Below, piece after piece: positions 6,320-50,424 of a DNA stretch of 64,000 bases. Under the pieces are notes generated by a model. It was given only the letters and a program-made list of their open reading frames with translations, was not told where the DNA came from and ran no database searches. The stretch is from Planctomycetota bacterium (lineage in GTDB: Bacteria > Planctomycetota > UBA1135 > UBA2386). Both the position numbers and the translations under genes were made by a program. Where the stretch lies: the NCBI GenBank assembly GCA_965223545.1, contig OZ245006.1, forward strand, positions 1,888,001 through 1,952,000. Direction: 5' to 3'. The first letter of the stretch is position 1, and the number at the start of each line of letters is the position of its first letter.

Positions 6320-6369
6320 GCGCCCTCGAACGAGGCCACTTGATCCAACGAACACCCAACTGACTTGCC

Positions 6370-26992: not shown

Positions 26993-27061
26993 GCCGACGG
27001 TCCTGGAAGCCCCGGACACTCGCACTACACTCGGCTGTCCTCCTCTGGCGCCCCGACTGCC

Positions 27062-33857: not shown

Positions 33858-36836
33858 GTGTCCTCTACACAGCCCCAGCGACCGCCGCCGATTCCCGTGA
33901 CTTCCCCACATGCCGAACGACTGGCAGAGCACGCCGCCTTCGTGCAACGACTGGCACGGCAGCTCGTCGCCGACCCGGACCTGGCCGACGACGTCGCGCA
34001 GGAGACGCTGACCGCGGCCCTCGAACGGGCGCCCTCCGACCGCGCGGCACTGCCAGCGTGGCTCGGCGTGATCGCGCGCCACCGCGCCAGCAACGCCCGC
34101 CGCGCCGCCGCCCGCCGCGCGCGGCACGAGCGCGCCGCGGCGAAGCCCGAGGGCGACGCCGCCGCGACCGACGTGTTCGATCGACTCGAGGTGCAGCAGA
34201 CGCTGCTCGCGCAAGTGCGCGCGCTGCGCGAGCCCTACCGCACCGCGATCTGGCTGCGCTATTTCGACGACCTACCGCCGCGCGCGATCGCGCGCCGCCT
34301 CGGCCTTCCCGTCAAGACAGTGAAGACCCACCTCTACCGCGGCCTCGACGCTCTGCGCCACAGCCTCGACCGCCGGTGCGGCGGCGACCGGAGCCGGTGG
34401 GTCGCGGCCCTGATTCCACTGCACCAGAACGCGCTGGCCGCGGTCAGCATCCCCGGCGGAGCATTGCTCGTGAAGAAGACCCTCATCGTGGCCGCGGCAG
34501 CGGCCATCGCCCTCACCGGCTGGCTGACCCTCGGCGGCGGTGAGCCCCAGACCATCCCAGCCTCCCCGGGCACGGTGACCCCCGCGCAGGGAGCGGCGCG
34601 GACTCGGGACGCGACTTCCGAAGCGATCGCGTCCGCCGCGCCGCACCGCTCGGCGGCGGTGCCCACCGCCGCGCGCACCGGCAGCCTGCGCGTGCGGCTG
34701 CGGTGGACCGGCACGCAGGGCCCGGCCGCCGACGTCGGCGTCACCGCGTACGGCAGCGCGGACCACGGGTCGCGCCGCGCCCGCCGCGCGACGCGCACCG
34801 ACGCGCGCGGCGTCGCGGTGTTCGCCGCGATGCCCGCCGGTGACCTGACGCTGTGGTTGGACCGCGGCCATCGCTTCGGCGGCCTCGAGGTGGTGGCCGG
34901 CGAAGACCGCGAGATCGAGCTCGAAGTCCCGGCGGGCACCACCATCGCGGGGCGCGCCACGGCGCCCGACGGCAGCCCGGTGCCGGGTGCCGAGATTTGG
35001 GCACACCGCCACCACCCGGGCTTCTACGCCTCCGGTGTGATCGCGCGCACCGCCGCCGACGGTAGCTTCACCGTCGAGGGGGTGGAGGCGCGCACCGAGA
35101 TCGGCGCCTGGGCGCCCGGCTTCACTCCGTCGGTGCTGGTCGAGCCCAGCGCGCTGCCCGAGGACGCGCGGGGCCGGCGCCAGGTCGACCTCCGCCTCGG
35201 TGAAACGGGCGGCCGCGTCGCCGGCCGAGTTCTCGACGCCGACCGCCGGCCGGTTGCCGGCGCGGTGGTGAAGATCGGCTCCCGCGGCGGACACATCGTC
35301 GATCTCGACGACGGTCTGCGGGCCACGGCCACGCGGCCCATGCTGTTGACGACGGATGCCGCCGGCGCGTTCGCGACGTCTGGCGACCTGCCGCTCGGCT
35401 CCCATCCGGTGGCGGCAATGGCGCCGGAATCGCCGATTTGGTCGGGCGACATCATCGTTCGCGCAAACGCAACCGCCGACCTGGAGATCGTGCTGCGACG
35501 TCCAGTGCGGATCACCGGCAGAGTGCTCGACCTCGAGGGCGCTCCGGTTGCCGACGCCAAGGTCGTCGCCGCCGTCGAAGTCGGAGGCGGTTGGTACTTC
35601 GAGACCTTCCCGCCAGCCACGGCGAAGAGTGATACCACCGGGCACTACGTCCTCGAGCTGGTCGCCCCGGGCGACATCGAGCTCAACGCGTCCGTCGCCC
35701 GCAAGCCGAGCCTGGGCAAGGCACAGACCCGGCTGCAGGCCACCGACGGCGCGTCGATCACCCTCGACCTAGTGCTCGATCCCGGCGCCACGATCGATGG
35801 CACCGTGTTCGATCGCGAAGGCGACCCGCTCGGCGGCTGGAGAGTGCACACGGCAAACGACGGCCGCGTCTATCCGCGTCAGGCAGAGACCGCCGCCGAC
35901 GGCACCTTCCGCCTGGCCAATCTCGAGCCCGATCACGCCTACATCGTCCGGGTCAGTGCACCGGGTGATCCGCCGGTGCCGGCACGCGCCGAACGGCGGG
36001 GCGTGCGGCCGTCGGCCACGGCTCTCCAGTTCGTCATCGAAGATGCGTCCGTGCCCGACGCCGGCGTGCGCGGCCAGTTGGTCGGCAGCGAAGGCCGCCC
36101 ACCGGCCAACGTGCAGCTCACCTACTATCCCGAGGGGAGCAACATGGGCGGCTTTCTCACCGTCGACCCCGAAGACGGAACGTTCGAGAAGACCTCGCTG
36201 CGTCCCGGGACGTATCGGCTGCGCGCGCTGCGCGGTGGGCAGATGGTGTACGAGAGCCCACCGCTCGAGCTCAGCTCCGGCGAAGTAACCGACGCCGGCA
36301 CTCTGCGGCTGGCGACGGGCGGTCGCGTCGAGCTGTCGGTGACCGGCATCGACGACGCGCAGCGGAGTGCGTTGTCGCTGCGCATGGATCGACCGGGTCA
36401 CGGCACCGAGACACTCGATCTGCGCGACGCAGTGTTCGTCTCACGCGAGCTCTTGCCCGGGACGTGGAGTCTGCGCGCGGGCGGCGAGCGCTGGTGCGTG
36501 TCGCCGGCAGAGATCGAAGTGCCCGCGGGACGGACCGCGAGCATCTCGGTCACCGCGCACGCCGCGCGCGAGGTGCGGGTCGAGTGCACGCTGCCGGGCG
36601 CCGGCTGGCGCACGCTGCACTACGAGGTGCGGGATGACGAGCAGACGCTCTTCCGTCGCGGCACGCATCGGGAATCCGCGCAAGCGGAGCCCGAGCACGC
36701 ACAGGTGCTGTACGGACTGGCGCTGCCGGACGGGACCTTCACGCTGCGCGCTTGGACCGACGCGGGGCTGCAGGGAGAGCTGCGGTTGACGGTCGGCGGC
36801 ACCGCGCCACCGCGGCACCGCCTCGTCCTTCGCTGA
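33858..36836 (+). CDS. ECF sigma factor fused via a TM helix to carboxypeptidase-regulatory-like repeats
   Basis: N-terminal sigma2/4 (LADDVAQET...WL; LREPYRTAIWLRYFDDL...IARRLGLPVKTVKTHLYRGL), TM TLIVAAAAAIALTGWL, then repeated G.V.D..G.PV.GA.V...T..DG.F units. Confidence 0.85.
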   Translation: MSSTQPQRPPPIPVTSPHAERLAEHAAFVQRLARQLVADPDLADDVAQETLTAALERAPSDRAALPAWLGVIARHRASNARRAAARRARHERAAAKPEGDAAATDVFDRLEVQQTLLAQVRALREPYRTAIWLRYFDDLPPRAIARRLGLPVKTVKTHLYRGLDALRHSLDRRCGGDRSRWVAALIPLHQNALAAVSIPGGALLVKKTLIVAAAAAIALTGWLTLGGGEPQTIPASPGTVTPAQGAARTRDATSEAIASAAPHRSAAVPTAARTGSLRVRLRWTGTQGPAADVGVTAYGSADHGSRRARRATRTDARGVAVFAAMPAGDLTLWLDRGHRFGGLEVVAGEDREIELEVPAGTTIAGRATAPDGSPVPGAEIWAHRHHPGFYASGVIARTAADGSFTVEGVEARTEIGAWAPGFTPSVLVEPSALPEDARGRRQVDLRLGETGGRVAGRVLDADRRPVAGAVVKIGSRGGHIVDLDDGLRATATRPMLLTTDAAGAFATSGDLPLGSHPVAAMAPESPIWSGDIIVRANATADLEIVLRRPVRITGRVLDLEGAPVADAKVVAAVEVGGGWYFETFPPATAKSDTTGHYVLELVAPGDIELNASVARKPSLGKAQTRLQATDGASITLDLVLDPGATIDGTVFDREGDPLGGWRVHTANDGRVYPRQAETAADGTFRLANLEPDHAYIVRVSAPGDPPVPARAERRGVRPSATALQFVIEDASVPDAGVRGQLVGSEGRPPANVQLTYYPEGSNMGGFLTVDPEDGTFEKTSLRPGTYRLRALRGGQMVYESPPLELSSGEVTDAGTLRLATGGRVELSVTGIDDAQRSALSLRMDRPGHGTETLDLRDAVFVSRELLPGTWSLRAGGERWCVSPAEIEVPAGRTASISVTAHAAREVRVECTLPGAGWRTLHYEVRDDEQTLFRRGTHRESAQAEPEHAQVLYGLALPDGTFTLRAWTDAGLQGELRLTVGGTAPPRHRLVLR

Positions 36837-36889
36837 GCGCCCCCCGCAGGCAGTTGTGCAGCGGCCGCTCCGGTGCTGCAATCCACCCT

Positions 36890-39712
36890 GTGGACCAGCG
36901 CGACGCCGAGACTCTGTCCGCGGGCGGTGACAGCCTCGACGACCTCGCCGCGGAGTGCGTCGCGCTGTACGAACAAGGCGGCGACACCGCCGTCGACGCC
37001 TTCTGCGAGCTCCATCCGGCGCACGCGAGCGAGATCCGCCAGCGCATGGCCACTCTGCGCGACCTCGGTCTGCTGGACATCGCCCGCGCCGAGACCGCGT
37101 TCCCCGAACGGTTTGGCGACTTTCGCCTACTCGAGCAGCTCGGTGGCGGTGGCATGGGCGTGGTCTACCGCGCCGAGCAGATGTCGCTCGGCCGCACGGT
37201 CGCCCTGAAGCTGGTGCGCCCGGACCGGCTGTTCTTCGAGGGTGCGCGCGAACGCTTCCGCCGCGAGATCGAGACGGTTGCCCAGCTGCAGCATCCCGGC
37301 ATCGTGCCGGTGTACGGCGCCGGCGTCGCCGGCGACCTGCCCTACTTCGCGATGGAGCTGGTGCGGGGGTGCTCGCTGGACGAGGTCATCGTCGGCTGCG
37401 CGCGCCAACCGCGCCCCACCGCGCGTGATTTGTACGCCGCGGTGTGCGAGGCCAGCGGCGTCGAGTTGGCGGAGACTCCCGAGCTGTTCGCCGGCAGCTG
37501 GGAGGAATCTGCGCTGCGCATCGCGCGCGCGATCGGCGAGGCGCTGCAACACGCCCACGACCGCGGCGTGGTGCACCGCGACGTCAAGCCGTCCAACGTG
37601 ATGATCACGCCAGAGGGCCGGGTCATGCTGGTCGACTTCGGTCTGGCCAGCTCGACCACTTCGCGGCAGCTGACGCACAGCGGCGCCGTCCTCGGTTCAC
37701 CACACTACATGGCGCCGGAGCAGGCCCGCGGCGAGTCCGACAGCCTCGGCCCGCCGGTCGACGTCTATGCGCTCGGCGTGACGCTCTACGAGCTGTTGAC
37801 TCGGCGCCGCGCGTTTACCGGTGGCACCACCGCCCGCGTGCTGACCGCGATCGAACGCGGCGACGTCCGGCCGCCCCGCATCCACGACCCGACGCTCTCG
37901 TGGGAGGCGCAGACGATCTGCCTGACGGCGATGGACATCGAGCCGGACCGCCGCTACCCGACCGCGGGCGCGATGGCGGCCGACCTCGCGGCTGCGCTGG
38001 CGCACCGACCCATCTCCGCCCGTCCGGCGAGCCGCGCGCGCCGGCTGCGGCGCTGGTGTCAACGGCACCCGGCCCGCGCGGTCGGCGCCGCGCTGGGCTC
38101 GTTCGTGCTCGTCGTCGGCCCGACCACGTTCGCGATCCAACAGCTGGTGGCCAACCGGCGCATCGGCACCGAGGCACGTATCGCGGACGCCAACCTGGTC
38201 ACCGCGCTGCGCGCGGTCGACGCCATGCTGACGCGGGTCGGCGCCAGCGAGCTGCGGCACGTGCCCCAGCTGACGCCAGTGCGCCAGCAGCTGCTGCAGG
38301 ACGCGACGACGCTGTTCGCCGAGCTCGAGGGGCGCGGCCGCGCCGGCGACGACGTCGCCCGGGGGGCCTGCGGAGCGCAGCTCAAGCTGGCGATGCTGCA
38401 GAGCGAGCTGGGCAACTACGACGACGCCGAAGCGGCGTTCGACCGTCTGCAGCCGACGATGGAGCGGCTGGCCACATCAGAGAAACAGGCCGACGTGCTG
38501 CGGCTTGCCGATCTGATGCATCAGCGCGGCATCCTCGCGCGGCACCGTTCGCGGCTCGAAGACGCCGAACGCGCGCAACAGCGCGCCGACGCACTGCTGG
38601 CAACCCTACCGACGAGCGCCGAGGCAGTCACTGCCGCCCGCATCAAGGTCGGTGCCGAGCGCGCCCACATCGCCACGCTGCGCGGCGACGTCGCTGCCGC
38701 CGAAGCCACCCTCGACGACGCCGCCCAGCACGGCGCCACGGCAGCGGCTTGGACCGAGCAGCCGGCAGTCGCCGCCGCACTGGCGAGAGTGTGGAATCGC
38801 CGCGGCGACCTGATGCTCGATCGCGAACGTTATCCCGAGGCCATCGACGCCTACGAACGCGGCGCCGCGATCATCCGCGCGCTGCTGGCCGCTACTCCCG
38901 ACAGTCGCGACCTCCGGACGCTGCTCGCCTCGCAGCTGCACAACCTCGCCATCGCCGCGCGCGAAGCCGGCGATCCGGAAACGGCGCTCGAGCACATTCG
39001 CCAATCCCACGCCGAACGGCGACAGCTGGTGCGCGAGTTCCCGGCCGGTCCCGACTACCGCTACGAGCTCGCCAAGATCTCGATCGTGCTCGCCAACACC
39101 CTGCGCGACAGTGGCGACCTCGACGGCATGCACGCGCACTACAGCGAGGCGGCGCTGATCGCCGAGGAGCTCGCCGCGGTGTATCCCGGCAACCCCAACT
39201 ACATCGCCACGCGCGGCTTCGCGCGACAGGGGTTGGGGTTTGTCGCCGCCATGCGCGGCGACTTCGCCACCGCCGCCGACGCGCTGCAGGGATCTGCCGA
39301 TGACCTGGCCGAGACCGCGGGTCGGCACGGCCCGGATTCGGTCCAACACCGTGGGCGCGCGATGAGCTTCTACGGCTTGATGCTCGCGCTGAAGGACCTT
39401 CGAGCGCCGAACGCCAACGAGCGGGGCGCGGCCGCGGCGGACGCCGCCATCGCGCACGGCCTGGCGCGCTGGCCGGACTTCGAGCTTGCGGTGAGCTTGC
39501 TCCGACGGGCAGCCGCGGCCGCCATGGACGACGAGTCTCTCACTCCTTCCGATCGCACGGCGCGCCGCAACGATTACACGGCACGCGCGGCGGCGGCACT
39601 GCGCGCCGCCGCCGACGCCGGCCACCACGACGCGGTGCTGCGCGCGCTCGACGACGCGTCGTTCTCGGCGGCGCCGTACCGCGCGCTGAAGAGCGAGCTG
39701 GAGGGGCGCTGA
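36890..39712 (+). CDS. Ser/Thr kinase with TM segment and TPR C-terminus
   Basis: LGGGGMGVVY, VALK, HRDVKPSNVM, DFGLA, GSPHYMAPEQ, DVYALG. Confidence 0.93.
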   Translation: MDQRDAETLSAGGDSLDDLAAECVALYEQGGDTAVDAFCELHPAHASEIRQRMATLRDLGLLDIARAETAFPERFGDFRLLEQLGGGGMGVVYRAEQMSLGRTVALKLVRPDRLFFEGARERFRREIETVAQLQHPGIVPVYGAGVAGDLPYFAMELVRGCSLDEVIVGCARQPRPTARDLYAAVCEASGVELAETPELFAGSWEESALRIARAIGEALQHAHDRGVVHRDVKPSNVMITPEGRVMLVDFGLASSTTSRQLTHSGAVLGSPHYMAPEQARGESDSLGPPVDVYALGVTLYELLTRRRAFTGGTTARVLTAIERGDVRPPRIHDPTLSWEAQTICLTAMDIEPDRRYPTAGAMAADLAAALAHRPISARPASRARRLRRWCQRHPARAVGAALGSFVLVVGPTTFAIQQLVANRRIGTEARIADANLVTALRAVDAMLTRVGASELRHVPQLTPVRQQLLQDATTLFAELEGRGRAGDDVARGACGAQLKLAMLQSELGNYDDAEAAFDRLQPTMERLATSEKQADVLRLADLMHQRGILARHRSRLEDAERAQQRADALLATLPTSAEAVTAARIKVGAERAHIATLRGDVAAAEATLDDAAQHGATAAAWTEQPAVAAALARVWNRRGDLMLDRERYPEAIDAYERGAAIIRALLAATPDSRDLRTLLASQLHNLAIAAREAGDPETALEHIRQSHAERRQLVREFPAGPDYRYELAKISIVLANTLRDSGDLDGMHAHYSEAALIAEELAAVYPGNPNYIATRGFARQGLGFVAAMRGDFATAADALQGSADDLAETAGRHGPDSVQHRGRAMSFYGLMLALKDLRAPNANERGAAAADAAIAHGLARWPDFELAVSLLRRAAAAAMDDESLTPSDRTARRNDYTARAAAALRAAADAGHHDAVLRALDDASFSAAPYRALKSELEGR
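39482..39597 (+). repeat. Copy 1 of a 116-bp inverted repeat (kinase 3' segment); copy 2 at 50746-50861
   Basis: Ungapped hand alignment gives 94/116 identical nt and 31/38 identical aa (ELAVSLLRRAAA.AM.DESLTPSDR.ARR.DYT.R). Confidence 0.85.
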
Positions 39713-40083
39713 GACAGTTCACCGGCTCTGCTCACCGCTGCCGAACACGGCGAGCGCCGCGGTGAGAAGCCAGCTCTCGAAGCCGCCGAGGTCCTGATCT
39801 CGGATCCCGGCGTTGGTCAAGGTGGCGATCCGGCGCGCAGGCGCTGCCCGTACGGAAGCCGCGTCGCCATCGACGTCACCGCCGTGGGCGATCATACGCG
39901 CACCGACGTCCTCCGTGTCAACGACGGAACACCGAGCCCGTACGCCCAGTCCGTCGTTCTCGTGAACCGGTAGAACGGAGTCTGCATCAGGCGGTCTGCG
40001 TAGTCCGCCGCGGACCACAGGCTCCGTGTCCTCGCCCATCAGGCCACGCCGAACCGTCGCTAGCCACACCCATATGCCCCCCC

Positions 40084-41133
40084 CTAGGCGTCGCCAGGTC
40101 TTGAACTCGCTGAGCTGGTTGATCGTGGTCTCGACTCGGAGCACGCTGCCGGCCTTGTCGTACATCTTGACCGAGTTTGCCTTGGCGGAGCGCTTGACGC
40201 GCACTCCCTCGATCCGGCGCTTGTAGTCCGTGGTTGCCTCGCCGCGGTAGCTGACCGATGGCGACTTGGCGAGGAACCGCAGGACGTCGGGGCTGTGGAA
40301 GTCGGTGACGGCGTGCCGAACCAGCGACGGATAGCACCGGGCCAAGGTCGCCGCGTCGGCGAACATGACGTCGGTGGCCCACTCGGCCTGGTGAACGGTC
40401 CAGTAGAAGTCCGCTCGCGCGGCGTTGGCGACTGCGGCCAGTGCGGGGTTCGCGCGGTGGACCAGATTGCCGAGCACCGCGCTCCAGTCGAGGCGGAGCA
40501 TTCGGCCCATGATCTCCTGGACACGCTCGGGGCTGGCGAAGGACGGAAAGCAGTTGTCGGCGCGGGTGTGGACGAGTCGTTCGCGCGCGAGCTGACGACC
40601 GAGCCACTCGCGGCCGTTGATGCAGATCTGGACCGTGTACGGCATCCAGGTCTGGACACGGACGCAACAGAGGCCAAGCTCGCGATCGAGGAAGTAGTGG
40701 TAGTGGTGCAGACACTTCGTGACGCGCCGCCGTACTGCCGTACTTGCTGCGGATGCTTGTGCTCGCGGGAGCGGCGCACCTGCCAGCTCGAGCATGGTTC
40801 GACGATGGAGAGCAGGCAGATCGCTCCGGAGCGGATCGGGCGCTCGGCCAAGATCTTCTTGGCGACGTCCTCCTTCCGGATCCGGCTGGACTCGAGCTAG
40901 CGGGCCGGAAGCTGCAGCCGCTCGGCGACGGACGTTGCGCCAGCGCGGATCATGCCGGTCACGGACTCGACGAACTTGCCGAAGTCCTTGAGCAGCACGC
41001 CTTGCGAAGACAAGAACGACCGGACGCCGCTCTCGTGGCAGAGTGGCAGCAGGTGGCCCCGGAAGACAAGGCGGTCGAAACCACGCAGGATGCCGGTGAT
41101 CTTCGCGGCGTGACGGTGTACGAAACGTTGCAC
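40084..41133 (-). pseudogene. Decayed gene of a probable mobile-element (transposase/Rep-like) protein
   Basis: GGAG plus GTG 41133: QRFVHRHAAKITGILRGFDRLVFRG... In-frame TAG at 40897-40899, frameshift near 40720-40740, then KCLHHYHYFLD..GL..VRVQTWMPY..QICINGREWL...NSVKMYDKAGSVLRVETTIN, truncated near 40085. Confidence 0.65.
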
Positions 41134-41491
41134 AACTTCCGCTCCTCGACCTCGGCTGTTGTGTTGACAACTTCGGTCGTACCGAGGACCGGGGCCGTAT
41201 TCACGCTTCAAGCGTCCGGCAGCCATCGCCGTGATCGTGTGCTCGCCGCTCTCCCGCGGTCAGCCCGACGCCATCGCCCACCGCGGCGTTCCCAGTTGTG
41301 TTGCGGGCGTCAGCCCGCGATAGGTGACAGAAGAAGACCTGGGGTAGCCCAGCACCGCCTGAACATCGCAAGACGCCATTCCCCGGTCATCGGCGCGCGC
41401 GAGCGTGCACCATTTCCGCCGTGACGCAATCGTCAGCGCCGCCGGCTACGTCGGCTTGACGGTGCGGGGGACCTTCGCTATTAAGGGAAGA

Positions 41492-42766
41492 GTGGAGTAC
41501 CAGAATCACGCGTTCCTCCAGCACAGTCCGTCGACGGGAGTACGGCAGCCGAAGAAGGGCGTCCAGGCAAAGGATGTCGACTTGCGTTCGATTCCGCCTG
41601 TCCCGGTGACCAACTTGGATATCGATATAACCGAGGGGTGCAACCTCGCCTGCTCATATTGTTTCAAAGGCGAGTTGGAGGGCAATCACATGTCCCTCGA
41701 AACGCTCAAGCAATGCTACGACTGGCTATCGGCAGCCTCTAGAGGTGCAGAGCAAATCAACTTCAACTTCATGGGTGGCGAGCCCACCATGAGGTGGAAG
41801 GAGATTCGAGCGTTTGTGCCCTGGGCTCGCCGTCGTTCGTTGGCGGAGGGCAAGCTGGCGACGTTTAGCATGACCTCGAACCTGACGTTGTGGACCGACG
41901 AGATACGGGACTTTGTTGACAAGTATGGGTTCGGTATCCTTATGTCGATTGACGGGTGCCCCGACGTTCAGGATGCTCAGCGGCCGGCCAAGAACGGCCG
42001 CCCCATGTCGGAGACGGTCGAGCGCTGGGCCAAGTCGTTGTTGAGGACGCGCCAACGGTCGACAGCGCGGATGACCTTGTCGCCACACTACGTAGGCCGA
42101 TTCAGAGAGAGCGTAGCATACTTAGTAGAAATTGGCTTTTCGGAGGTCACCGTCGGGACGGCGGACTACGGGTCATGGTCCATGTTGGACCTAGCGACTT
42201 TTCGAGAGCAGTTGGCCGGAATCGTGGAGGACATCGGCCAGTCGTATACAGGCGCAAAGCCCTTTCAGATGACGGTTCTGAAATACCTGGTTGACCATGT
42301 AGTTCGGCACCGAAGAGAAGGGAAGCCGGAGCGTATTGAGCGGCGAGATAGCCCATGTGGTGCCGGGAAGGGGTATCTGATGGTCGACCACACTGGCGAC
42401 ATCTGGCCCTGCCACCGCTTCGATGGTGCTGACCAGGATGTAGGGGCTGAGGGGTCCATGCGAATGGGCAACATCTACCAGCCCGGGTTTCATACGAGTC
42501 TACAGCAGGCGTTCTTGGAGTTTGACCACTCCAAGAAGAGGAAAGAGTCGTGTGATACATGTCCGGTCGACCCGGTCTGTGGCGGATTCTGCCCCGCGGC
42601 GAATCTCCAAGACTCAGGCAACATCTACACGCCGCATGACGGTTACTGCGTGCTATCGCAGGGCTTCTACCGGGCAGCTGACCATCTCTACTCCCTAGCA
42701 GCGGGCGGTGGGTTCTTGGACAGATTGTTGAAGGATTGCGAGGGGACAGACAGCGATGGACGCTAG
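41492..42766 (+). CDS. Radical SAM/SPASM-domain peptide or protein maturase
   Basis: CNLACSYC (CxxxCxxC), FMGGEP, SIDG, and a full SPASM domain (PCGAGKGYLMVDHTGDIWPCHRF...CDTCPVDPVCGGFCPAAN...YC). Probable GTG start at 41492 after AAGGGA; the ORF is open from 41405. Confidence 0.93.
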   Translation: MEYQNHAFLQHSPSTGVRQPKKGVQAKDVDLRSIPPVPVTNLDIDITEGCNLACSYCFKGELEGNHMSLETLKQCYDWLSAASRGAEQINFNFMGGEPTMRWKEIRAFVPWARRRSLAEGKLATFSMTSNLTLWTDEIRDFVDKYGFGILMSIDGCPDVQDAQRPAKNGRPMSETVERWAKSLLRTRQRSTARMTLSPHYVGRFRESVAYLVEIGFSEVTVGTADYGSWSMLDLATFREQLAGIVEDIGQSYTGAKPFQMTVLKYLVDHVVRHRREGKPERIERRDSPCGAGKGYLMVDHTGDIWPCHRFDGADQDVGAEGSMRMGNIYQPGFHTSLQQAFLEFDHSKKRKESCDTCPVDPVCGGFCPAANLQDSGNIYTPHDGYCVLSQGFYRAADHLYSLAAGGGFLDRLLKDCEGTDSDGR

Positions 42767-43679
42767 CGCAGCGGAGCGGGAGTTGCGTGGCCCTTACGGC
42801 GTGCTCACCCAGGAACGCGATGGGCTAGTGGTTCGAAGGCGGCCGCGGCCCGTGCTACCGAAGACTTGGGTCGGTGTGGTCGACGCGTCCGGTTCCGACG
42901 CGGTCCAACTCGCGAAGGAGTGGGAGTCGCGCGCGTTACGACCGATGTCTAGCGTTGCGTTAGAGGTGACTTGTCATGACAAGCAGGACCTCGAGAGGTT
43001 GCCCGAACTCTTGCAAGGGGTCGCGGGGGTCGTGGTGTCAGTCCCGGCGATTTGGTTGGTTGAGCCATCAGCTGAAGAGTGGCAGTTCGCGGAATCGGTG
43101 CAACGGCTGCGAATAGTGGATGAGGGCCTGGAAGGCAACGACCTACTGAGAGCCGGGGAACGCTACGCGGGCCTGGAGGCTGAGGGCTTGCTGGTGGAGG
43201 TAGAATTGCGCCATGATTACCCCTCGGATTTGCTCAGCCGCGTAGAGTTCTGGTCGACTGCGGGGAGAGCCAGCCCCGTGCATCTGAGTGCAGTCGGAGA
43301 TGGCGGTATGAGCCAGGATGACCGTGTCGAAGAGTATTTGAGGGCTGGTGCACTCTTGGGGAACGCCGTCTTGCGGAGTGAGCCGTTCAGGAGCATACTG
43401 GCTCCGATGTTGGAGGAGCGGGAGTATCTGCATGCGGCTCCAGCGTCGGCAGCGCGCTGGACGCTCCGCAGGGAGCGCTGTCCAGCCTGTCCGTGGCGGG
43501 CGTTCTGTCTCGTCACACGGGTTGGACCAATGTTGGTGGACCAAGATGTCGCGATGGAGTGTGCTTTGCGGAAGGCCGTCTTGGCGTCCTGCTTGACCGC
43601 GCGCGCCGCCGAAGGCGAACGAGAACGCAGCGCCAGTGCAAGGAGTTCAGAGAAATGGCGAGACTACTTGCTGGTCTAG
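42756..43679 (+). CDS. Hypothetical protein with C-terminal half-SPASM-like Cys cluster (degenerate radical SAM-like partner)
   Basis: Overlaps the radical SAM stop. Alternating beta/alpha pattern; C-terminal RERCPACPWRAFC-x17-C; no CxxxCxxC. Confidence 0.6.
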   Translation: MDASAAERELRGPYGVLTQERDGLVVRRRPRPVLPKTWVGVVDASGSDAVQLAKEWESRALRPMSSVALEVTCHDKQDLERLPELLQGVAGVVVSVPAIWLVEPSAEEWQFAESVQRLRIVDEGLEGNDLLRAGERYAGLEAEGLLVEVELRHDYPSDLLSRVEFWSTAGRASPVHLSAVGDGGMSQDDRVEEYLRAGALLGNAVLRSEPFRSILAPMLEEREYLHAAPASAARWTLRRERCPACPWRAFCLVTRVGPMLVDQDVAMECALRKAVLASCLTARAAEGERERSASARSSEKWRDYLLV

Positions 43680-44893
43680 CCCTGCTGGTTGCTGGTCTAG
43701 CCCTGCTGGCAGTCATTTGGCTCGCTGCAGAGGCGTCGACCGGGCTGAGGCCCCCTGACGGTGGCCCGGCCAACAAGTCGGACAGTGTGCTCGTCCGTGA
43801 TTCGGAGCGAGTGACATCGAGGTTGCGCATCGAAGCACCAGCGCCCACGCTGAGTGTGCTCGCTCAAGATGGTCGCTTGGTAGAGGGGGCGGAGGTCGTG
43901 GTCGCAGGAGCGCGCGGCCAGGAGGTGAAGGGGAGGCGGTACGTTATTGGAGCGGAGGTCGGCGATACTGCACCCGTTGACATAGTTGCTCGAGGCTTTT
44001 GGCCTTGGAGTCGGGAGCTGCGTATCGAGCAGGAGAACACTGTCCGCTTGACACCAAGGAACTGGTTAGAGCTGTGTGTGGTCGATGCTGTTTCGACGGT
44101 CCCTGTGCCTACGTTTGAAGTGCTACCGACAGATGTTGTTGTGAAGCAAGAACACCCACAGGTCGGTTGCGTGTGGTTGCGTGCGAGTGGTCGCGGCGGG
44201 TTTGCGGTGGGCGTCGCCGCACCAGGATACCCATTCCAGGAGGTCTGGGTCAAGGGCCACAACAGGAGAGCGGTGGTGGAGCTCCTGGCATCCTGTTCGT
44301 TGGCTGGGGTTGTGCGAAGCCGGGATGGCGCTCCGTTGAGCGGTGTTGAGGTGGTGGACCCTAGGCTTGGACTGCGCGGCGAACCACTGGGAGTAACAGC
44401 CGAGGACGGCAGCTTCTCTGTCGAAGTCGCGCCAGTGGATGGCGCTGTGAACCTGCAGCTGCGGAAAGAGGGCTGTGTGCGGTTGGAGTTTCGGCGCCGC
44501 GGCGCTCCGGGTGGGAGGCAATGGTGTGGCGAGGTGGAGGTCCCCGAGGCCGCAATAGTGTTTGGTGTGGTGACGGGCGCGGACGGTCATCCTGTCGTGG
44601 GCGCGGGAATCGTTGTTGCACAAGGTTCCTTGATTAGGAGCGGTGTGCGCGGGCTGACAACACACGAGAAAAGGTGTCGTAAGCGGCTCCCGCGGGGCTG
44701 GCGCGTCGTCAGAGACGTTGAGCGACTTTTGGCCGTTACAAGCAAGGACGGCAGTTACCGGGTCGACGGAGTCGTGCCCGGGACGGTGCGGCAGAGGGTC
44801 TGGGTGACCGCTGGCGACAAAACTGTTGGAAAGACGATACCGGAAGTTGCCACTGGCGGCGCACGGTATCAGTGTGACATTTCGTTGCGGTAG
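43655..44893 (+). CDS. Membrane-anchored carboxypeptidase-regulatory-like (beta-sandwich repeat) protein
   Basis: N-terminal TM LLAGLALLVAGLALLAVIWL; repeats GVVRSRDGAPLSGVEV...TAEDGSF and GVVTGADGHPVVGAGI...TSKDGSYRV. Confidence 0.7.
   Translation: MARLLAGLALLVAGLALLAVIWLAAEASTGLRPPDGGPANKSDSVLVRDSERVTSRLRIEAPAPTLSVLAQDGRLVEGAEVVVAGARGQEVKGRRYVIGAEVGDTAPVDIVARGFWPWSRELRIEQENTVRLTPRNWLELCVVDAVSTVPVPTFEVLPTDVVVKQEHPQVGCVWLRASGRGGFAVGVAAPGYPFQEVWVKGHNRRAVVELLASCSLAGVVRSRDGAPLSGVEVVDPRLGLRGEPLGVTAEDGSFSVEVAPVDGAVNLQLRKEGCVRLEFRRRGAPGGRQWCGEVEVPEAAIVFGVVTGADGHPVVGAGIVVAQGSLIRSGVRGLTTHEKRCRKRLPRGWRVVRDVERLLAVTSKDGSYRVDGVVPGTVRQRVWVTAGDKTVGKTIPEVATGGARYQCDISLR
43668..43709 (+). repeat. Perfect 21-bp tandem duplication extending the TM helix
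   Basis: TTGCTGGTCTAGCCCTGCTGG twice (AGLALL twice). Confidence 0.9.
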
Positions 44894-44906
44894 AGGAGTC
44901 TGGCAG

Positions 44907-45590
44907 ATGAATCAGGAAGAACTGGTCGAGGCTGTGACCGAACTGGTAACCCGCCGAACGGCGATGCGGACGGCAGTCATGGGGCTGGCCGCAGTGTTGG
45001 GGCGGGCGGCGAGTGCTGCCGTTCCGACGTCGTCATCCACATTCTCTACAGAATGCACGGGGGCCAACACGTGTAGCGCCACACAGCCCAACGAATGCGT
45101 GAGCGGCGAGAACAACACTTGCTCAGGTGTCAACACCTGCACCAGCTATAACACCTGTGAAGGTGCTGGGACGACGAACGACTGCTCGAGCGACAACACG
45201 TGCACCAACAGCAACTGGTGCGACCTAGGAGCTAGCAACAACTGCGAGGTTCAGACTTCGGGCAATTCGTGTTCGACGACCGGGGACGTTGGCTCGTCCA
45301 ACACCTGCACTCCTGTTCAGGCGCAGAACAACTGCACGCCTGGAATTGGCGACGATACAGGTAACGGGTGCACGGGAGCAATGAGCAACAAGTGCTCCGC
45401 TGGCTCGAGCAACAACTGCCAGAGCATAGGTTCCGGTCGGAACGAGTGTTCCGGGGGCTCGGAATCGAACACGTGTGTTGGTATCGGTGCGAACAACAAT
45501 TGTGAGTCAGCGTCGACCAATACATGTGGGACCGGTGGCTCGCAGATGAACACTTGCTTGAAAAGCGCGTCGAACACCGTTGGGCCGTAA
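44907..45590 (+). CDS. Tat-signal Cys/Asn-rich protein with 20 N-x-C repeats; putative radical SAM substrate
   Basis: GAGGAG RBS 8 nt upstream; VTRRTAM...h-region...AASA signal; 21 Cys in the mature part, 20 of them as N-x-C. Confidence 0.85.
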   Translation: MNQEELVEAVTELVTRRTAMRTAVMGLAAVLGRAASAAVPTSSSTFSTECTGANTCSATQPNECVSGENNTCSGVNTCTSYNTCEGAGTTNDCSSDNTCTNSNWCDLGASNNCEVQTSGNSCSTTGDVGSSNTCTPVQAQNNCTPGIGDDTGNGCTGAMSNKCSAGSSNNCQSIGSGRNECSGGSESNTCVGIGANNNCESASTNTCGTGGSQMNTCLKSASNTVGP

Positions 45591-46291
45591 GGTCATGCAA
45601 ACCTTCTGCTAGTGGGGCTGGTCAGAAATTCGCATCATAGATATCCAGCTACTTGGCAGCGATGTCGTCGCAGTAACGCTGGAGAGATCGCAGGATCTGG
45701 TCTGCTGTCTTGGACCATACGTACGGGGAGGGATCGTCGTTGTGCTCATCGAGGAAGCTGCGGATGTCTTGTTCGAGGGCACGGGTCGAGCGGTGCACGC
45801 CTCGCTTGAGCTTTCGGCGAGAGAGCAGTGAGAAGAAGCTCTCCGCCACGTTCAACCAAGAAGACTTGGTTGGCGTGAAGTGAAGTTGGAATCGAGGGTG
45901 CCGCAGCAACCAACGTTTCACATCGGCAGTCTTGTGTCTTGTGTGTCGCGTAGTTGTCCAAGATGACGTGGATGTCCAGGTGCGCGGGCACGTTGCTGTC
46001 AATTTCGTCGAGGAAGCGAATGAACTCCTTAGCCCGGTGCTTCCTGAAGCACTTCCCGATCACGCGGCCCGTCGCCACGTCGAGTGCTGCGAACAGAGTC
46101 GTCGTACCATGTCGGATGTAGCGGTCGGTTTGCCGAGCATTGACTGTGGGTCGCATCGGCAAGAGCGGCTGTAACTGTTCCGGCACGCACGTTCTTCGCG
46201 CCGCGCCGAACCGGCGCATGAACAGAGATTTCCGCCACCGGGTGTCGGCACCGGCGCCGGCCACGACGGTGACCGTCCGTAGCTGGCTGGG

Positions 46292-47914
46292 CTACGAGCC
46301 CACGAACAACTGACGCACGATGTTGTCGATCGCGTTGTCGGCTTTGGCGATCTGGGCACGCCGTTGCCGTCCCAGCATCCAGCCACGCGGAGTCAGCTGA
46401 CCGACCTGGGAGGCAGGAGTGGTCGAGATCGCGTGAAGCACATCCCGCAGGTAGAGCAGCGGGCTGATGCCATGCTCTCGACACGACTGGACGAGACTCA
46501 AGAGGATGAGTGAAGCTTGGGTGCCGTCCTCGGATCCGAAGAAGAGCCAGTTCTTCTTGCCGATCACGACTGCACGCAGAGCACGCTCGCAACCGTTGTT
46601 CGAGATCTCGCGGATGCGGCCATCGGTCAGGAAGCGCTCGAGAGCAGGCCACTGGTTGAGCCCGTAGCGAACTCCCTCCATGAGCGGCCCCTTCGGGAGG
46701 CTCGGCTGGTCGATGTGCATCTGCTCGAGCCAAGCCTTGAGCGCGTTCGCAATCGGGCGAGAGTCGCGCTGACGGACCTCGACCAGCTCGTCATCCGTGA
46801 AGGGTCGACCATCTTTGCCCTTCTTGGCGACGCTCTCGATCGCGAACAGCTTGCCGATCCAGCCCAGAGCCTTCTCCGTGGTCGAGTCGCCGAGCTTCCG
46901 CGCATTCACGAAGTAGCGACGAAGGTGTGCCCAGCATCCGATGCGCGCGATGCTGGTTGGATCGAGATCGCTGTAGCAGTCATGGCCATCGCACTGCAAC
47001 CGACCACCGCGGTCGCCCAAGACCTCTTTGGGGCTGCCGCGATTGCGTGAGTCCGTAGCGGTGTAGAAAACCCCGGCGTGTTGATCGCGCCACGCCCACA
47101 CGTGGATCTTTTTCTGTCCGGGGTTTCGGCCGTTGCGCTGGTTGCCGTAGGTGTCGTCCACCTGCAGGACGGAGGTGTCGAGGCTCTCGAGAACTTGCTC
47201 GACATGGGCATCGAACACGGGCTTCAGGAGCTCGGCACAGCGCATCGCCGAAGTGCATAGGACGCTACGCGACAGGCTGAGCCCCTCGGCTGCGTACTTC
47301 TTCTCCAACCGCGCGTACGGCATGTGGTTGGCAAAGCGGTCGAAGATGATCTGCGCAAGGAAGCCGGGGCCGAGGATGCTTTTGTCGAGGACTCGGGTGG
47401 GGCCCGCGGCGACGACGACGTAGCCCTGACAGGTCGCGCAGGAGTACTTCTTCCTCACGATCTGGTGGACGAACGAGAGCTCGATGCGCTCGAGCTCCTG
47501 CGAGACCTCTTCGCCGAACTCCCGACGGCCGTTGCCGCAGCAAGGGCACAGCAGGTCCTCGCCCTCGATCGTGAATACGGAGCGTTGCCGCGGAAGATGC
47601 TCTGGGAAGTCCTTGCGTCGCTTGGTGCGCTTGCGCTTGTGCTCGGGGACGGTGATCTCTTCGGCCTCTTCTTCGGCCGCCTTGGCGTCGGCTCCCGCTT
47701 CCTCTACAGCCTCTTGCGCGAACGGCAGCAGCTGTCGCGGGTCGATGTAGCGGCTCTTCTCCGAGCGGCGACCGAACAGCATGCGCTGAAGGTCGGACAT
47801 CTGCGACTTCAGCGACGAGATCTGCGTGAGCAGATCCGGGATCAAGGCACGTAGCTGCGCCTCATCCAGTGCGTCGACGTTGACCGTTTGCTTGCGACCG
47901 CCCATCGCGACCAT
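46292..47914 (-). CDS. tnpC: IS66 DDE transposase TnpC
   Basis: LFGRRSEK, CPCCG zinc ribbon, KYSCATC, LQVDDT, LQCDG, CWAHLRRYF, ISNNGCERALR...GKKNWLFFGS. Confidence 0.95.
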   Translation of the reverse strand: MVAMGGRKQTVNVDALDEAQLRALIPDLLTQISSLKSQMSDLQRMLFGRRSEKSRYIDPRQLLPFAQEAVEEAGADAKAAEEEAEEITVPEHKRKRTKRRKDFPEHLPRQRSVFTIEGEDLLCPCCGNGRREFGEEVSQELERIELSFVHQIVRKKYSCATCQGYVVVAAGPTRVLDKSILGPGFLAQIIFDRFANHMPYARLEKKYAAEGLSLSRSVLCTSAMRCAELLKPVFDAHVEQVLESLDTSVLQVDDTYGNQRNGRNPGQKKIHVWAWRDQHAGVFYTATDSRNRGSPKEVLGDRGGRLQCDGHDCYSDLDPTSIARIGCWAHLRRYFVNARKLGDSTTEKALGWIGKLFAIESVAKKGKDGRPFTDDELVEVRQRDSRPIANALKAWLEQMHIDQPSLPKGPLMEGVRYGLNQWPALERFLTDGRIREISNNGCERALRAVVIGKKNWLFFGSEDGTQASLILLSLVQSCREHGISPLLYLRDVLHAISTTPASQVGQLTPRGWMLGRQRRAQIAKADNAIDNIVRQLFVGS

Positions 47915-48275
47915 TGATACGAACAGAGCGCGAGTAATGCCGACGAAACTTGGCGGATTTCAGATCAATCCCTTCGAGCAACATCACGAGCTGTGCGCGC
48001 TCGACTTCGACATGTGTGGCGTCGCCGCTCTTGGGACGCCAACTGTCAAACGTGCCGCGCTCGAGTCGCTTCATCGAGATCCAGAAACCGTTGCGATCCC
48101 AGAACAAGATCTTCACGCGATCGCGACGCCGGTTGAAGAACGCGAAGACGTCGCCATCGAACGGATCCCGATGAAAGCTGTGCTGGACGATCGCGCTCAG
48201 CCCGTCGAACGACTTCCTCATGTCGGTTGGCTCGTTGGCGACGTACACGCGCACGCCCGCTGGGAAGGCCAGCAT
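47862..48275 (-). CDS. tnpB: IS66 accessory protein TnpB
   Basis: PTDMRKSFDGL...FFNRRRDRVKILFWDRNGFW...KRLERGTF...LLEGIDL. Confidence 0.95.
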   Translation of the reverse strand: MLAFPAGVRVYVANEPTDMRKSFDGLSAIVQHSFHRDPFDGDVFAFFNRRRDRVKILFWDRNGFWISMKRLERGTFDSWRPKSGDATHVEVERAQLVMLLEGIDLKSAKFRRHYSRSVRINGRDGRSQANGQRRRTG

Positions 48276-48613
48276 CAGTCGGCCACAGAGTCCAGCAAGC
48301 GGTACGCGATGTCTTGAGCAATCGCGCCCTCGAACTCCGCGACGACGCCCGCCGGGAACCTGAGCCGCACAAGGCTCGAGCTCTCGCCCTCGTCGTTACT
48401 CGTCCGGCCCCGACCATCGCGATCGACGACTCGGACCTCCGCGAACCCAGTGCTCTCCTCCGATCGCAACCGATGCGACCACCAACTCAGCGTCCCGATC
48501 GGGATACCGAACCGCTCCGAGAGCGCACGCAGCGAAAACCCTTCCTGCTCGCGGAGCGCGAGAACCTGCCGGATCTCACGGCGACGACTTGCTCGCTTCG
48601 ACATGGCCGCCAT
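48275..48613 (-). CDS. tnpA: IS66 TnpA-like HTH protein
   Basis: GFSLRALSERFGIPIGTLSWWSHRL HTH plus FAEVRV; first ORF inside the IR. Confidence 0.8.
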   Translation of the reverse strand: MAAMSKRASRRREIRQVLALREQEGFSLRALSERFGIPIGTLSWWSHRLRSEESTGFAEVRVVDRDGRGRTSNDEGESSSLVRLRFPAGVVAEFEGAIAQDIAYRLLDSVAD

Positions 48614-48785
48614 CGTGGCGAACGACTCGAGCGTTTGCAGACGTGGTTGCCGGAACAGTTACGAGCGGCTGCGCTCGATCCCGCACCAACGGCCTTCTAG
48701 GCCCAGAACCAGAGTTCGTGTCACCAGCGTAAGCGTCCGGTGAAGGCATCTCGAAAGCCGCTGGCGGATCGGCAGGATGCGGCGG

Positions 48786-49121
48786 ATGACGAAGAGAATC
48801 CCCGTGTGGGCTCGAGCGGAGATGCGCGAGCTGCTTCAAGAGCTGGACACCTCAGGCGTGACGTTCGCCGAGTTCGCGCGCCGGCGTGGTGTCAACGCAA
48901 ACCGCATCTACTGGGCGAGGCGGCAAGCCCGAGCTGCGGCGGCGCCGACCTCCGCGCAGGCGATGTCGGACTTCGGGGAGCTGGTGGTCGCCGCAGACCC
49001 GTCTCCGCGACGAGCAGCGGCCATTGAGTTTCGGGTGCCGTCGGGCGCGGTTGTCGATGTGCAGCGCGACTTCGACGAAGCGACGCTCCGACGGCTGCTC
49101 GGAGTCCTGCTGTCATGCTGA
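48786..49121 (+). CDS. tnpA: IS66 TnpA-like HTH protein
   Basis: SGVTFAEFARRRGV...YWAR...FDEATLRRLL. Confidence 0.8.
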   Translation: MTKRIPVWARAEMRELLQELDTSGVTFAEFARRRGVNANRIYWARRQARAAAAPTSAQAMSDFGELVVAADPSPRRAAAIEFRVPSGAVVDVQRDFDEATLRRLLGVLLSC

Positions 49122-49477
49122 GCTTTCCGCCCTCGCCGCTAGTCAAGATCTTCGTTTGCCGGAAGCCGGTGGACATGAGGAAGAGCTTCAGCGGTCTGTC
49201 GGGTGCGGTCATCGACGTGGTCGACCACGACCCGCAATCTGGTCACCTCTTCCTCTTCTTCAACAAGCGCCGGACCATGATGAAGGCACTGGTGTGGGAG
49301 CCGTCTGGTTACTGGGTGCTGGCGAAGCGACTTACGAGCGGCCGCTTTCAGGTCTTCGATCGCTCGGCTGAGAACAGCAGCCGATTCGAGATTGCGAGTA
49401 GCGATCTCGCGCTCTTGTTGGACGGCATCGACCTCCGTGGCGCGCGCCGCAGAGAAGTTCGCGATCAGGTGCTGTAA
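49115..49477 (+). CDS. tnpB: IS66 accessory protein TnpB
   Basis: PVDMRKSFSGL...DPQSGHLFLFFNKRR...KRL..GRF...LLDGIDL. Confidence 0.92.
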   Translation: MLSFPPSPLVKIFVCRKPVDMRKSFSGLSGAVIDVVDHDPQSGHLFLFFNKRRTMMKALVWEPSGYWVLAKRLTSGRFQVFDRSAENSSRFEIASSDLALLLDGIDLRGARRREVRDQVL

Positions 49478-49525
49478 CGACTGGCCGCGACTTGATCCGT
49501 CTCCGGTTTGTGTTAATCAGAGGGA

Positions 49526-50215
49526 GTGACGCCGCTCACGGACCTCGACGAAGCCAACTCGACGATCGTCAAGCTGCGCGCCGAGATCGAGCGCCTTCGC
49601 GAGCAGCTCGAACTGATGAAGCAGCGCACGTTCGGACGGCGCCGCGAGCACATCGATCCGAACCAACTGCTGCTGTTCGAGGCCGGCGTCGCGCAGCTCG
49701 AAGAGCTGCAGAAGCAGGCGCAGGAAGCGGAGCAGTCGAGCGAACTCGCGAAGCCTGACCCGAAGAAGAAGCGGAAGCGCGGTCACGGTCGCGGTCAGTT
49801 CGCCGAGCACCTGGATCGGCATGTCGTCGAGGTCGACGTGCCGGAAGCGGAGCGCTGCTGCCCCGAGTGCGGCGAGGCCATGCACTGCATCGGAACTGAC
49901 GTCACCGAGCGTGGCCACATCATCCCAGCGCGGTTGGTCGTGAAGCGCTACGTGCGCAACAAGTACGCGTGCCCGCACGGGCACAGGATGAAGATGGCGT
50001 CGATGCCTGCCGGCGTCGTCGAGAAGGCGAAGTACGAGCCCTCCGTCTACGCGCATCTCGTCACAGCGAAGTACGGCGACCACCTGCCGCTGAACCGCCT
50101 GCAGGGGATCTTCCGCCGCTTCGGGGCGCACGTCCCGAAGTAGACCATGTGGGACATGCTGGCGCGCTTCGACGAGATCGCGGCGCGTCCGATCCTGGCC
50201 GGCCAGTCCTGCTGA
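49526..50215 (+). pseudogene. tnpC: Truncated IS66 TnpC
   Basis: FGRRRE, CPECG, KYACP, KYGDHLPLNR, then TAG at 50141-50143. The frame resumes (TMWDML) before the deletion that reaches the right IR. Confidence 0.88.
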
Positions 50216-50424
50216 AACGCGTCGGCGGTCGCTTTTCAACCGCTGGCCGCCATGGCGTCACCGGACGCTTACTCACCAGCCGCCATCTGGCGATTGCTTG
50301 AGCTGAGATAGGGAGGCCGCGCCAGCGGCGACGACTGCAGCGATGAGGCGACGTCCGGCAGTCGTGACCCGGTAGCGATGCGTGCCCCGAACCTTGTCGA
50401 TGACGCCGTGAGCACAGAGCAGAC

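Follow-up and report, generated by a model that had tools for sequence, protein, structure and literature searches.

Gene Organization of the Locus

The stretch of DNA analyzed here (the window) comprises 64,000 nucleotides of a Planctomycetota bacterium (GenBank assembly GCA_965223545.1, contig OZ245006.1, forward-strand positions 1,888,001 to 1,952,000). Four plus-strand genes at positions 41492–45590 of the window form a block with the features of a protein-crosslinking system. The first gene product, P0001 (41492–42766, 424 aa), is a radical S-adenosylmethionine (rSAM) enzyme with the Pfam domains Radical_SAM and SPASM. Its gene overlaps by 11 nt that of P0002 (42756–43679, 307 aa), a putatively degenerate rSAM/SPASM partner, which in turn overlaps by 25 nt that of P0003 (43655–44893), a membrane-anchored β-sandwich protein with a CarboxypepD_reg domain, whose length of 412 aa counts from the ATG at 43655, a start of our choice. 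A gap of 13 nt separates P0003 from P0004 (44907–45590, 227 aa), the presumed precursor and substrate. The guanine-plus-cytosine (GC) content is 0.605 across the locus, lower than in the window as a whole (0.691) and in the main contig (0.697). The tight coupling and low GC content noted in a preliminary description of this DNA are thereby confirmed, as is the lack of a peptidase or an ATP-binding cassette (ABC) exporter among the four genes; no protease or transporter recurs across the related loci described below. A promoter and terminator scan of the locus gave matches at chance level.

The Presumed Cys/Asn-Repeat Precursor

P0004 contains 21 Cys and 29 Asn residues and 20 N-x-C motifs. In 20,000 shuffles of the mature sequence the motif occurred 3.2 times on average and 10 times at most, and P0004 is the sole frame with more than five N-x-C motifs in the 8.1-Mb genome. 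The twin-arginine protein of this composition announced in the preliminary description is therefore real. No family match was found in Pfam or NCBIfam. After removal of the leader at Ala37, the predicted mature protein has 190 residues, a mass of 18.6 kDa, and a pI of about 4.05.

A Family of Thioether-Type SPASM Enzymes

P0001 carries the CxxxCxxC motif of the SAM cluster (RS motif; C50, C54, and C57; 41639–41662, plus strand), which is invariant in the family alignment, and a SPASM domain with seven cysteines (289, 307, 354, 357, 363, 367, and 386). The alignment consists of P0001 and 72 of the 89 relatives found at E ≤ 1e-40, and the cysteines of both motifs are kept in 72–73 of these 73 sequences. 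The relatives with a taxon name are from Planctomycetota or Candidatus Sumerlaeota, and one is labeled simply as a bacterium.

The best NCBIfam models for P0001 were PapB (NF047865; 212 bits, cut-off 340), QhpD (TIGR03906; 191 bits, cut-off 453), nif11 (181 bits, cut-off 519), and SCIFF (150 bits, cut-off 425); lower scores were obtained with the CXXX-repeat model TIGR04115 (106 bits, cut-off 350), the sulfatase maturase model TIGR03942 (85 bits, cut-off 349), and the CrpC model TIGR04463 (54 bits, cut-off 525). Membership in the PapB, QhpD, SCIFF, CrpC, or CXXX families was rejected because each score lies below the respective cut-off, and a sulfatase maturase was discarded on the same ground. 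PapB, QhpD, SCIFF, and nif11 were also the best models for all 73 family members, the best of which matches PapB with an E value of 6.5e-75. The closest solved structure is that of CteB (PDB code 5WGG; E 1.9e-54). The residues in proximity to the catalytic center of CteB, namely F112, F152, T186, S210, H363, and Q364 (PMC10288494), map to F58, M94, T128, S152, H308, and R309 of P0001; four of the six are identical and these positions are kept in 72–73 of the 73 sequences, the comparison being made against CteB alone. PapB requires a conserved Arg372 that is thought to touch the acceptor (PMC9413430), and we infer that R309 is its equivalent in P0001. Profile, structure, and proximity residues thus support the grouping of the family with the thioether-forming SPASM maturases (PapB/QhpD/CteB group), as had been surmised in the preliminary description, at scores below the family cut-offs.

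The RS motif of P0001 starts at residue 50 (21–91 in the 73 relatives, 47–73 in most), and the alignment of CteB to P0001 starts only at about CteB residue 87. The position of the motif so near the N-terminus leaves most family members without space for a fused RRE domain.

Co-occurrence of Enzyme and Precursor

Thirteen other enzyme loci were compiled: one from genome contigs (L001), five from 400 other genomes of a phylum sample, two from metagenomes (L013 and L014), and five from 338 genomes of a class sample. An order-level search returned four loci, all already in the set. In 12 of the 13, a twin-arginine Cys/Asn-repeat protein with 8–23 N-x-C motifs is encoded within about 4.5 kb of the enzyme, either upstream, downstream, or divergently. 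The thirteenth, L107, has a truncated enzyme and no precursor; at 8492–9406 of this locus the enzyme ends near residue 206 and continues into unrelated sequence beside a gene resembling those of insertion sequences (IS), as in a decayed copy. By comparison, frames with more than five N-x-C motifs occur in none of 78 control loci of 27–34% identical SPASM enzymes, which are partly short and related. These controls stem from the metagenome search, where only two of the 80 loci among the matches listed belonged to the family and the rest were mostly distant gut enzymes. The gene-neighborhood comparison that the preliminary description had called for thus couples the enzyme to such proteins, and close homologs without an N-x-C protein, which it had named as contrary evidence, are represented in this set by the truncated enzyme alone. 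P0004 is very probably the substrate of P0001.

Across the phylum sample of 401 genomes, the enzyme search and a precursor-profile search matched the same six genomes, whose precursors are in the profile by construction, with seven candidates per genome scored. Among 339 class genomes the profile matched six, four with the enzyme and two with precursor fragments, one of them interrupted by an IS (L123) and the other located at a contig end (L124). The negative genome counts are lower bounds, since the profile (A3) misses the precursor of L106. Nine further precursors, free of genomic context, came from protein searches. The system is present in about 1.5% of the sampled genomes, and this patchy distribution is consistent with a mobile module that has spread laterally; relatives of P0001 were found neither in plasmids at E ≤ 1e-40 nor in viral contigs. 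The gene set is conserved, real, and unnamed. A literature search found no description of the system in the searchable papers, a coverage that leaves out most subscription journals.

The Register of the Predicted Rings

The register was derived from 23 precursors with a median identity of 32% and a maximum of 59%, leaving out P0102 as a near-duplicate of the L014 precursor. Asn occupies position −2 of 384 of the 439 non-first cysteines, versus none of the 23 first cysteines. At the opposite end, the last Cys is followed 3–10 residues on by an unpaired Asn (13 precursors) or Asp (8 precursors) in 21 of the 23, L014 and L106 being the exceptions. The same ends are seen in P0004: its first Cys, C50, is not preceded by Asn at −2, and its last Asn, N223, is not followed by Cys at +2. 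The terminal Asn or Asp lies exactly at +6 from the last Cys in 12 of the 23 (background 0.108), and +6 is also the modal distance from an internal Cys to the next Asn (187 of 400). Of 17 intervals of at least 10 residues without Asn at −2, 15 show Asn at −4 and keep the Cys-to-Asn distance at 6 or 7 (seven precursors). An Asn or Asp partner is available to 449 of 462 cysteines in the downstream register versus 401 of 462 in the N-x-C register, the downstream window being the wider one. The fragments of L123 and L124, found after the rule had been set, both end in C-x5-N.

The terminal asymmetry and the spacing of the long intervals indicate that C-x(n)-N is the counted, conserved unit and N-x-C the linker. 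The ring probably runs from each Cys to the next Asn (C-x3..11-N, with mode C-x5-N), and a crosslink to the β-carbon of this downstream Asn is favored with reasonable confidence. The core of P0004 (C50–N223; 45054–45575, plus strand) would accordingly be read, from sequence statistics, as 21 in-line rings (C50–N54, C56–N62, C64–N70 and onward to C207–N215 and C217–N223) joined by one-residue linkers. Rings within N-x-C, as drawn in the preliminary description, do not account for the Asn-less first cysteines, the unpaired terminal residues, or the spacing.

The acceptor position is Asn in 88% and Asp in 4% of cases, Asp being the commonest substitute (16 cases), and positions other than Asn show at most 41% conservation, a value reached by Gly at +2. 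Cys spacing ranges from 5 to 14 with a mode of 8, which differs from the Cys at every fourth residue of CXXX repeats; likewise, the modal span of C-x5 differs from the CX3D motif of PapB substrates, and Asn at −3, as in N-x-x-C, precedes about 5% of the cysteines. The number of cysteines is even in just 11 of the 23 precursors, so there is no sign of all-disulfide pairing, which was rejected as the main explanation.

Published linkages offer precedents for both the polarity and the acceptor. QhpC contains the in-line links Cys7–Glu16, Cys27–Asp33, and Cys41–Asp49, at i+9, i+6, and i+8 (PMC8172795). PapB is reported to accept CX0-6D and to refuse the transposed motif (PMC9413430), and in CrpA the Cys also lies ahead of the acceptors (PMC13692751). 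NxxcB demonstrates that the β-carbon of Asn works as an acceptor, with Asp, Ala, and Gln tolerated at this position (PMC9389541).

P0002, a Probable Degenerate Partner

P0002 had been described as a Cys-tailed hypothetical protein. The C-terminal Cys cluster stands, but the protein is no generic hypothetical; it appears to be a conserved, degenerate, and catalytically dead rSAM/SPASM paralogue, as judged from sequence and models. The cluster Cx2Cx5C...C (C242, C245, C251, and C269; 43479–43562, plus strand) has the spacing of C354/357/363/386 in P0001 and of C390/393/399/422, the ligands of auxiliary cluster II (AuxII) in CrpC (PMC13692751), a correspondence of ligand spacing only, and the AuxI cysteines and the RS motif are lost. 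Neighbors of P0002 in a language-model atlas are SPASM/rSAM clusters (score 0.92–0.93). The predicted model resembles an α/β-barrel and its structural matches are generic TIM barrels, with nothing at E ≤ 0.001 in Foldseek. No family model matched P0002, a search by words returned only the protein itself, and the partner profiles found nothing in the PDB.

A profile of the partners detected P0002 in a leave-one-out search with an E value of 8e-10. Nine of the 12 intact loci contain a relative confirmed by the profile; the one in L104 is encoded on the other strand and was matched blind (E 1.6e-50). The proteins in L012 and L013 are candidates by position only (leave-one-out E 0.22 and 1.6), and the profile detected no partner in L001 or in the control loci. 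At 6616–7968 of L001, two open reading frames (ORFs) in partner position look by eye like a split partner, undetected by the profile. The Cx2Cx5C..C cluster is present in 9 of 11 partners and CxxxCxxC in none of the 11; P0002 likewise lacks CxxxCxxC. Between the partner and enzyme families, HHalign gave a weak match (E 0.003, with a probability of 10%).

Most partners have an N-terminal domain of about 90 aa, three-stranded and helical by eye and without a match in the PDB or Pfam, which may represent the missing RRE. The shorter P0002 apparently lacks it, and a tblastn search of the genome found no other copy. By analogy with TrnC/TrnD, two rSAM proteins that form a complex in which one activity is essential for thioether formation (PMC12093266), it seems rather probable that P0002 assists P0001.

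Leader, Export, and Gene 3

Residues 1–37 of P0004 (44907–45017, plus strand) constitute a predicted signal peptide of the twin-arginine translocation (Tat) type, with R16–R17 at 44952–44957 and an A-S-A cleavage site recognized by eye; T-RR-T-A-M is followed by 11 uncharged residues, a basic residue, and A-S-A. An RR pair lies 20–62 residues before the first Cys in all 23 precursors, and a hydrophobic stretch, usually ending in A-x-A, follows in nearly all; the N-termini are otherwise unalignable. The TatFind-type pattern fits 18 of the 23, P0004 included. The TAT_signal models TIGR01409 and PF10518 gave no match to P0004 at E ≤ 0.1. TatC is encoded in the host genome (PF00902, 208 bits), and no tat genes were noticed by eye among the ORFs neighboring the enzyme loci. 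Export of P0004 by Tat is, on the sequence evidence, likely.

P0003 has an N-terminal hydrophobic segment and a CarboxypepD_reg domain (PF13620, E 1e-9) that also occurs in other genes of the window. A weak relative was found in L008 only among 11 loci tested, and a similar protein is present in L123; in the remaining loci, any membrane-anchored or secreted neighbors are unrelated, so that P0003 is accessory at most. The preliminary description was correct in that gene 3 encodes a membrane-anchored β-sandwich protein and is tightly coupled to the others, with which it is co-transcribed, but P0003 was rejected as a core component because it is not conserved across loci.

Predicted Fold of the Precursor

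An AlphaFold2 model of P0004, based on a 13-row alignment, is a β-solenoid with a pLDDT (predicted local distance difference test) score of 58, rising to 70–79 only in residues ~150–210. The model aligns with the UspA1 head (Z 10.8, root mean square deviation 7.4, 100 residues aligned), RsaA (Z 10.6, 3.0, 171), and an antifreeze β-helix (Z 10.3, 3.1, 171), as well as CsgA. With overall Z values of 9.5–10.8 these are generic matches to repeats, and Foldseek returned nothing at E ≤ 0.001. Caution also follows from CrpA, for which the authors found a β-helix prediction inconsistent with the mapped links (PMC13692751). The N-to-C offsets of 2 and 4 fit short β-strands, and rings closing the arcs between them would reconcile fold and chemistry.

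Mobile Setting and Neighboring Genes

Directly downstream of the system lies a broken IS630-family transposase (45649–46264, minus strand; partial NF033545 matches in two frames, Pfam DDE_3), which marks an island boundary outside the system. It is followed by an IS66 element (46171–48662, minus strand) whose terminal inverted repeats are 22 nt long and which was apparently inserted into the IS630 remnant, and by a second, truncated IS66 with terminal inverted repeats at 48729–50272 and a GntR fragment after it. On the upstream side, a 483-aa ORF (39719–41170, minus strand) without a Pfam or NCBIfam match directly adjoins the cassette; we take it to be transposase-like from its motifs. Low GC content, the IS630 and IS66 sequences downstream, and this ORF upstream make the four-gene block look recently acquired.

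A perfect 21-nt tandem duplication (43668–43709) lies in the membrane segment of P0003 and, read in the other frame, covers the last codons of P0002. Further genes of the window encode Ser/Thr kinases with tetratricopeptide repeats and an extracytoplasmic-function sigma factor fused to CarboxypepD_reg repeats (14615–17338, 26360–29863, and 33858–39712). Elsewhere in the genome, and unrelated to the locus, a small ORF (G000:C1:5504046-5504426, minus strand) resembles a lipoprotein and has 13 Cys distributed over repeated units.

Several related loci have additional features. L103 encodes two tandem precursors with 31 and 33 core cysteines (4877–6991). An NfuA-like Fe-S carrier gene lies nearby in both L103 and L123 (9553–10143), and both have an unnamed gene just 3′ of the precursor that appears glycosyl- or sugar-transfer-like by eye, without an NCBIfam match; the shared genes suggest extra tailoring in this subgroup. 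In L105 (4663–6309), a B12-dependent rSAM gene is located ~1 kb downstream of the partner (best model TIGR04479, 226 bits, below its cut-off). L106 (10391–11542) encodes a second protein with an RR leader between precursor and partner, again without an NCBIfam match.

Proposed Mechanism and Alternative Explanations

As the best overall explanation, we propose with some confidence a three-gene module that staples P0004 before Tat export; thioether chemistry as such is highly likely. The module would be mobile and consist of an active ranthisynthase (P0001), a dead helper paralogue (P0002), and P0004 as a substrate of ~19 kDa. The 5′-deoxyadenosyl radical would, in the cytoplasm, take a hydrogen from the β-carbon of Asn, while a SPASM auxiliary cluster would hold the thiol of a Cys 4–12 residues upstream, usually 6. 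Each resulting Cys(S)–Asn(Cβ) bond would lower the mass by 2 Da; with as many as 21 rings in line, separated by N-x-C linkers, the change would reach −42 Da. The rigid, already folded product would be unable to use Sec and would exit by Tat, and cleavage of the leader by signal peptidase would make a dedicated protease or ABC exporter unnecessary. The product would most likely be a covalently stapled β-solenoid in which each ring closes one β-arc; that its role is extracytoplasmic, as a robust protein for binding or scaffolding, is a tentative suggestion.

Some observations weigh against this explanation. A family enzyme was not found in the incomplete genomes that carry the L123 and L124 precursor fragments, and leader recognition in the P0004 system is unexplained, since P0002 is without the N-terminal domain of most partners and tblastn found no other copy in the genome. 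Binomial P values for the register are overstated because the precursors are related, and end-capping could be behind some of the terminal asymmetry. The N-to-C offsets of 2 or 4 also fit β-strand alternation, and in a β-solenoid the role of Asn could be wholly that of a structural ladder. The one characterized Cys–Asn thioether, Cys23–Asn20 of NxxcA, has Asn upstream (PMC8326336). Finally, the RR motif of P0004 is non-canonical, with no Phe and 11 uncharged residues, and matches of relatives to the Tat models are few, just 1 of the 12 tested passing the TIGR01409 cut-off.

The upstream position of Asn in NxxcA, together with Asn at −2 as the sharpest positional signal, would suit a register in which the target of each Cys is the Asn at −2, giving 20 small N-x-C β-thioether rings and a free C50. 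This register leaves the Asn-less first cysteines, the terminal Asn or Asp, and the long intervals unexplained, and PapB, the nearest model, is reported not to crosslink a transposed motif (PMC9413430); we consider it improbable. Alternatively, the thioethers could be formed to another carbon, such as the α-carbon of Asn in a sactionine or a Gly, Thr, or Ser near the Cys, with Asn as the solenoid ladder. The β-solenoid model and the similarity of G-x-x-N-x-C to β-roll repeats are in line with this possibility, as are the prevalence of Gly at +2, the CrpA rings in motifs without Asp or Asn (PMC13692751), and the sactisynthases GggB and QmpB, which are ranthisynthase-like in sequence and proximity profile (PMC10288494). 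Yet no non-Asn position is conserved comparably, Asp is the preferred substitute, and the 1:1 ratio of Cys to Asn is strict at both ends, which makes another carbon an unlikely acceptor.

P0004 might also be an exported disulfide- or metal-binding β-solenoid of the antifreeze or curli kind, with most cysteines free until export and an enzymatic change that is different or sparse. The resemblance of the model to the solenoids of adhesins, S-layers, curli, and antifreeze proteins would agree with this, and CrpA is only part-modified in Escherichia coli and is suggested to be a metal binder (PMC13692751). However, the fold matches are generic for repeats and derive from a low-confidence model, the Cys counts show no even bias, and the linkage to a thioether-type enzyme is near-obligate; little probability remains for this explanation. 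On a separate axis, the RR-hydrophobic segment could mainly be an enzyme-recognition leader or a membrane anchor and not a cleaved Tat signal, with the product retained in the cell or in the membrane. The weak TIGR01409 results, the 5 of 23 precursors that fail the TatFind-type pattern, and the neighborhoods without noticed tat genes point in this direction. Against it stand the recurrence of RR and a hydrophobic stretch, usually with an A-x-A end, in essentially all 23 precursors despite unalignable N-termini, the presence of TatC in the genome, and the fact that no other exporter or protease is conserved, and we regard retention in the cell as unlikely.

Very few cases are known in which enzymes staple whole proteins by thioethers, with three links in QhpC and four mapped motifs in CrpA. 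The family described here predicts 13–33 links per chain, with a different acceptor, a polarity unlike that of NxxcB, a dead paralogue as helper, and Tat export in place of a dedicated protease and transporter. If the proposed stapling is correct, it would offer a processive macrocyclization tool for Asn-containing sequences and a route to very stable extracellular proteins, as well as insight into the choice of direction by SPASM enzymes and the working of their cofactor-less twins. More speculatively, this could be the first covalently stapled β-solenoid, a protein of ~19–30 kDa with 13–33 Cys-to-downstream-Asn rings per chain, one closing every β-arc, that is built by an active and a dead rSAM protein and exported by Tat. 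No polypeptide known so far would then be as heavily crosslinked by ranthionines, and the enzyme might be able to staple acceptors with an amide group in a processive manner and across spans of different length.

Comparison with Known Systems

The P0004 system appears, by sequence, to be a variant of ranthionine protein crosslinking that lies outside each known family tested. In gene layout it resembles the CXXX-repeat system of Bacteroidota (TIGR04114/PF27846, TIGR04115, and TIGR04119), which combines a twin-arginine Cys-repeat target with an rSAM enzyme and a second maturase-like gene; PF27846 is a weak atlas neighbor of P0004 (0.82). The CXXX targets differ by a Cys at every fourth residue and the absence of an Asn register, and the private TatA/C that has been reported for that system is not seen at the P0004 locus. 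A literature search found no experimental paper on the CXXX-repeat system.

PapB/PapA (freyrasin) and CteB/SCIFF provide the best profile and the best solved structure, respectively, and share the polarity of Cys followed by the acceptor. They are RRE-fused Firmicutes systems that act on short peptides with CX3D or Cys–Thr links; SCIFF is a six-Cys peptide of 45 aa, compared with 227 aa and 21 Cys in P0004. NxxcB/NxxcA of Streptococcus shares the Cys–Asn β-thioether predicted for P0004, but forms one link, to an upstream Asn, in a short peptide, as a comparison of the linkages shows. The thuricin CD pair TrnC/TrnD sets a precedent for P0002 as a second rSAM protein; both of its members are intact and form sactionines on short peptides, whereas P0002 is without the RS motif and AuxI ligands.

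QhpD/QhpC is alike in its rSAM/SPASM enzyme and its in-line thioethers of variable span from Cys to a downstream acceptor, and QhpC is crosslinked in the cytoplasm before export (PMC7876137). It differs in having three links to Asp or Glu, a fused RRE, the protease QhpE, the ABC exporter QhpF, and an enzyme subunit as its product; the P0004 system has ~21 predicted links to Asn, no fused RRE, a twin-arginine leader, and a dead paralogue, and no dehydrogenase subunit is encoded among the four genes, as it would be with qhpABC. CrpA of Methanococcus voltae, described in 2026, is a ~29-kDa Cys-repeat protein with a low-confidence predicted β-helix and multiple ranthionines, of which four motifs were mapped in one fragment (PMC13692751). 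The idea of a protein-sized, poly-crosslinked product in the preliminary description is kept; with CrpA and QhpC on record, such a product is no longer unprecedented. CrpC/CrpA shares with the P0004 system a Cys-repeat protein, the Cys before the acceptor, and multiple ranthionines, which are predicted in P0004; it is distinguished by its archaeal origin, C-X-X-Q/D motifs in 17-aa repeats, and a fused RRE, and the parts of its report covered here describe neither twin-arginine export nor a dead partner (PMC13692751).

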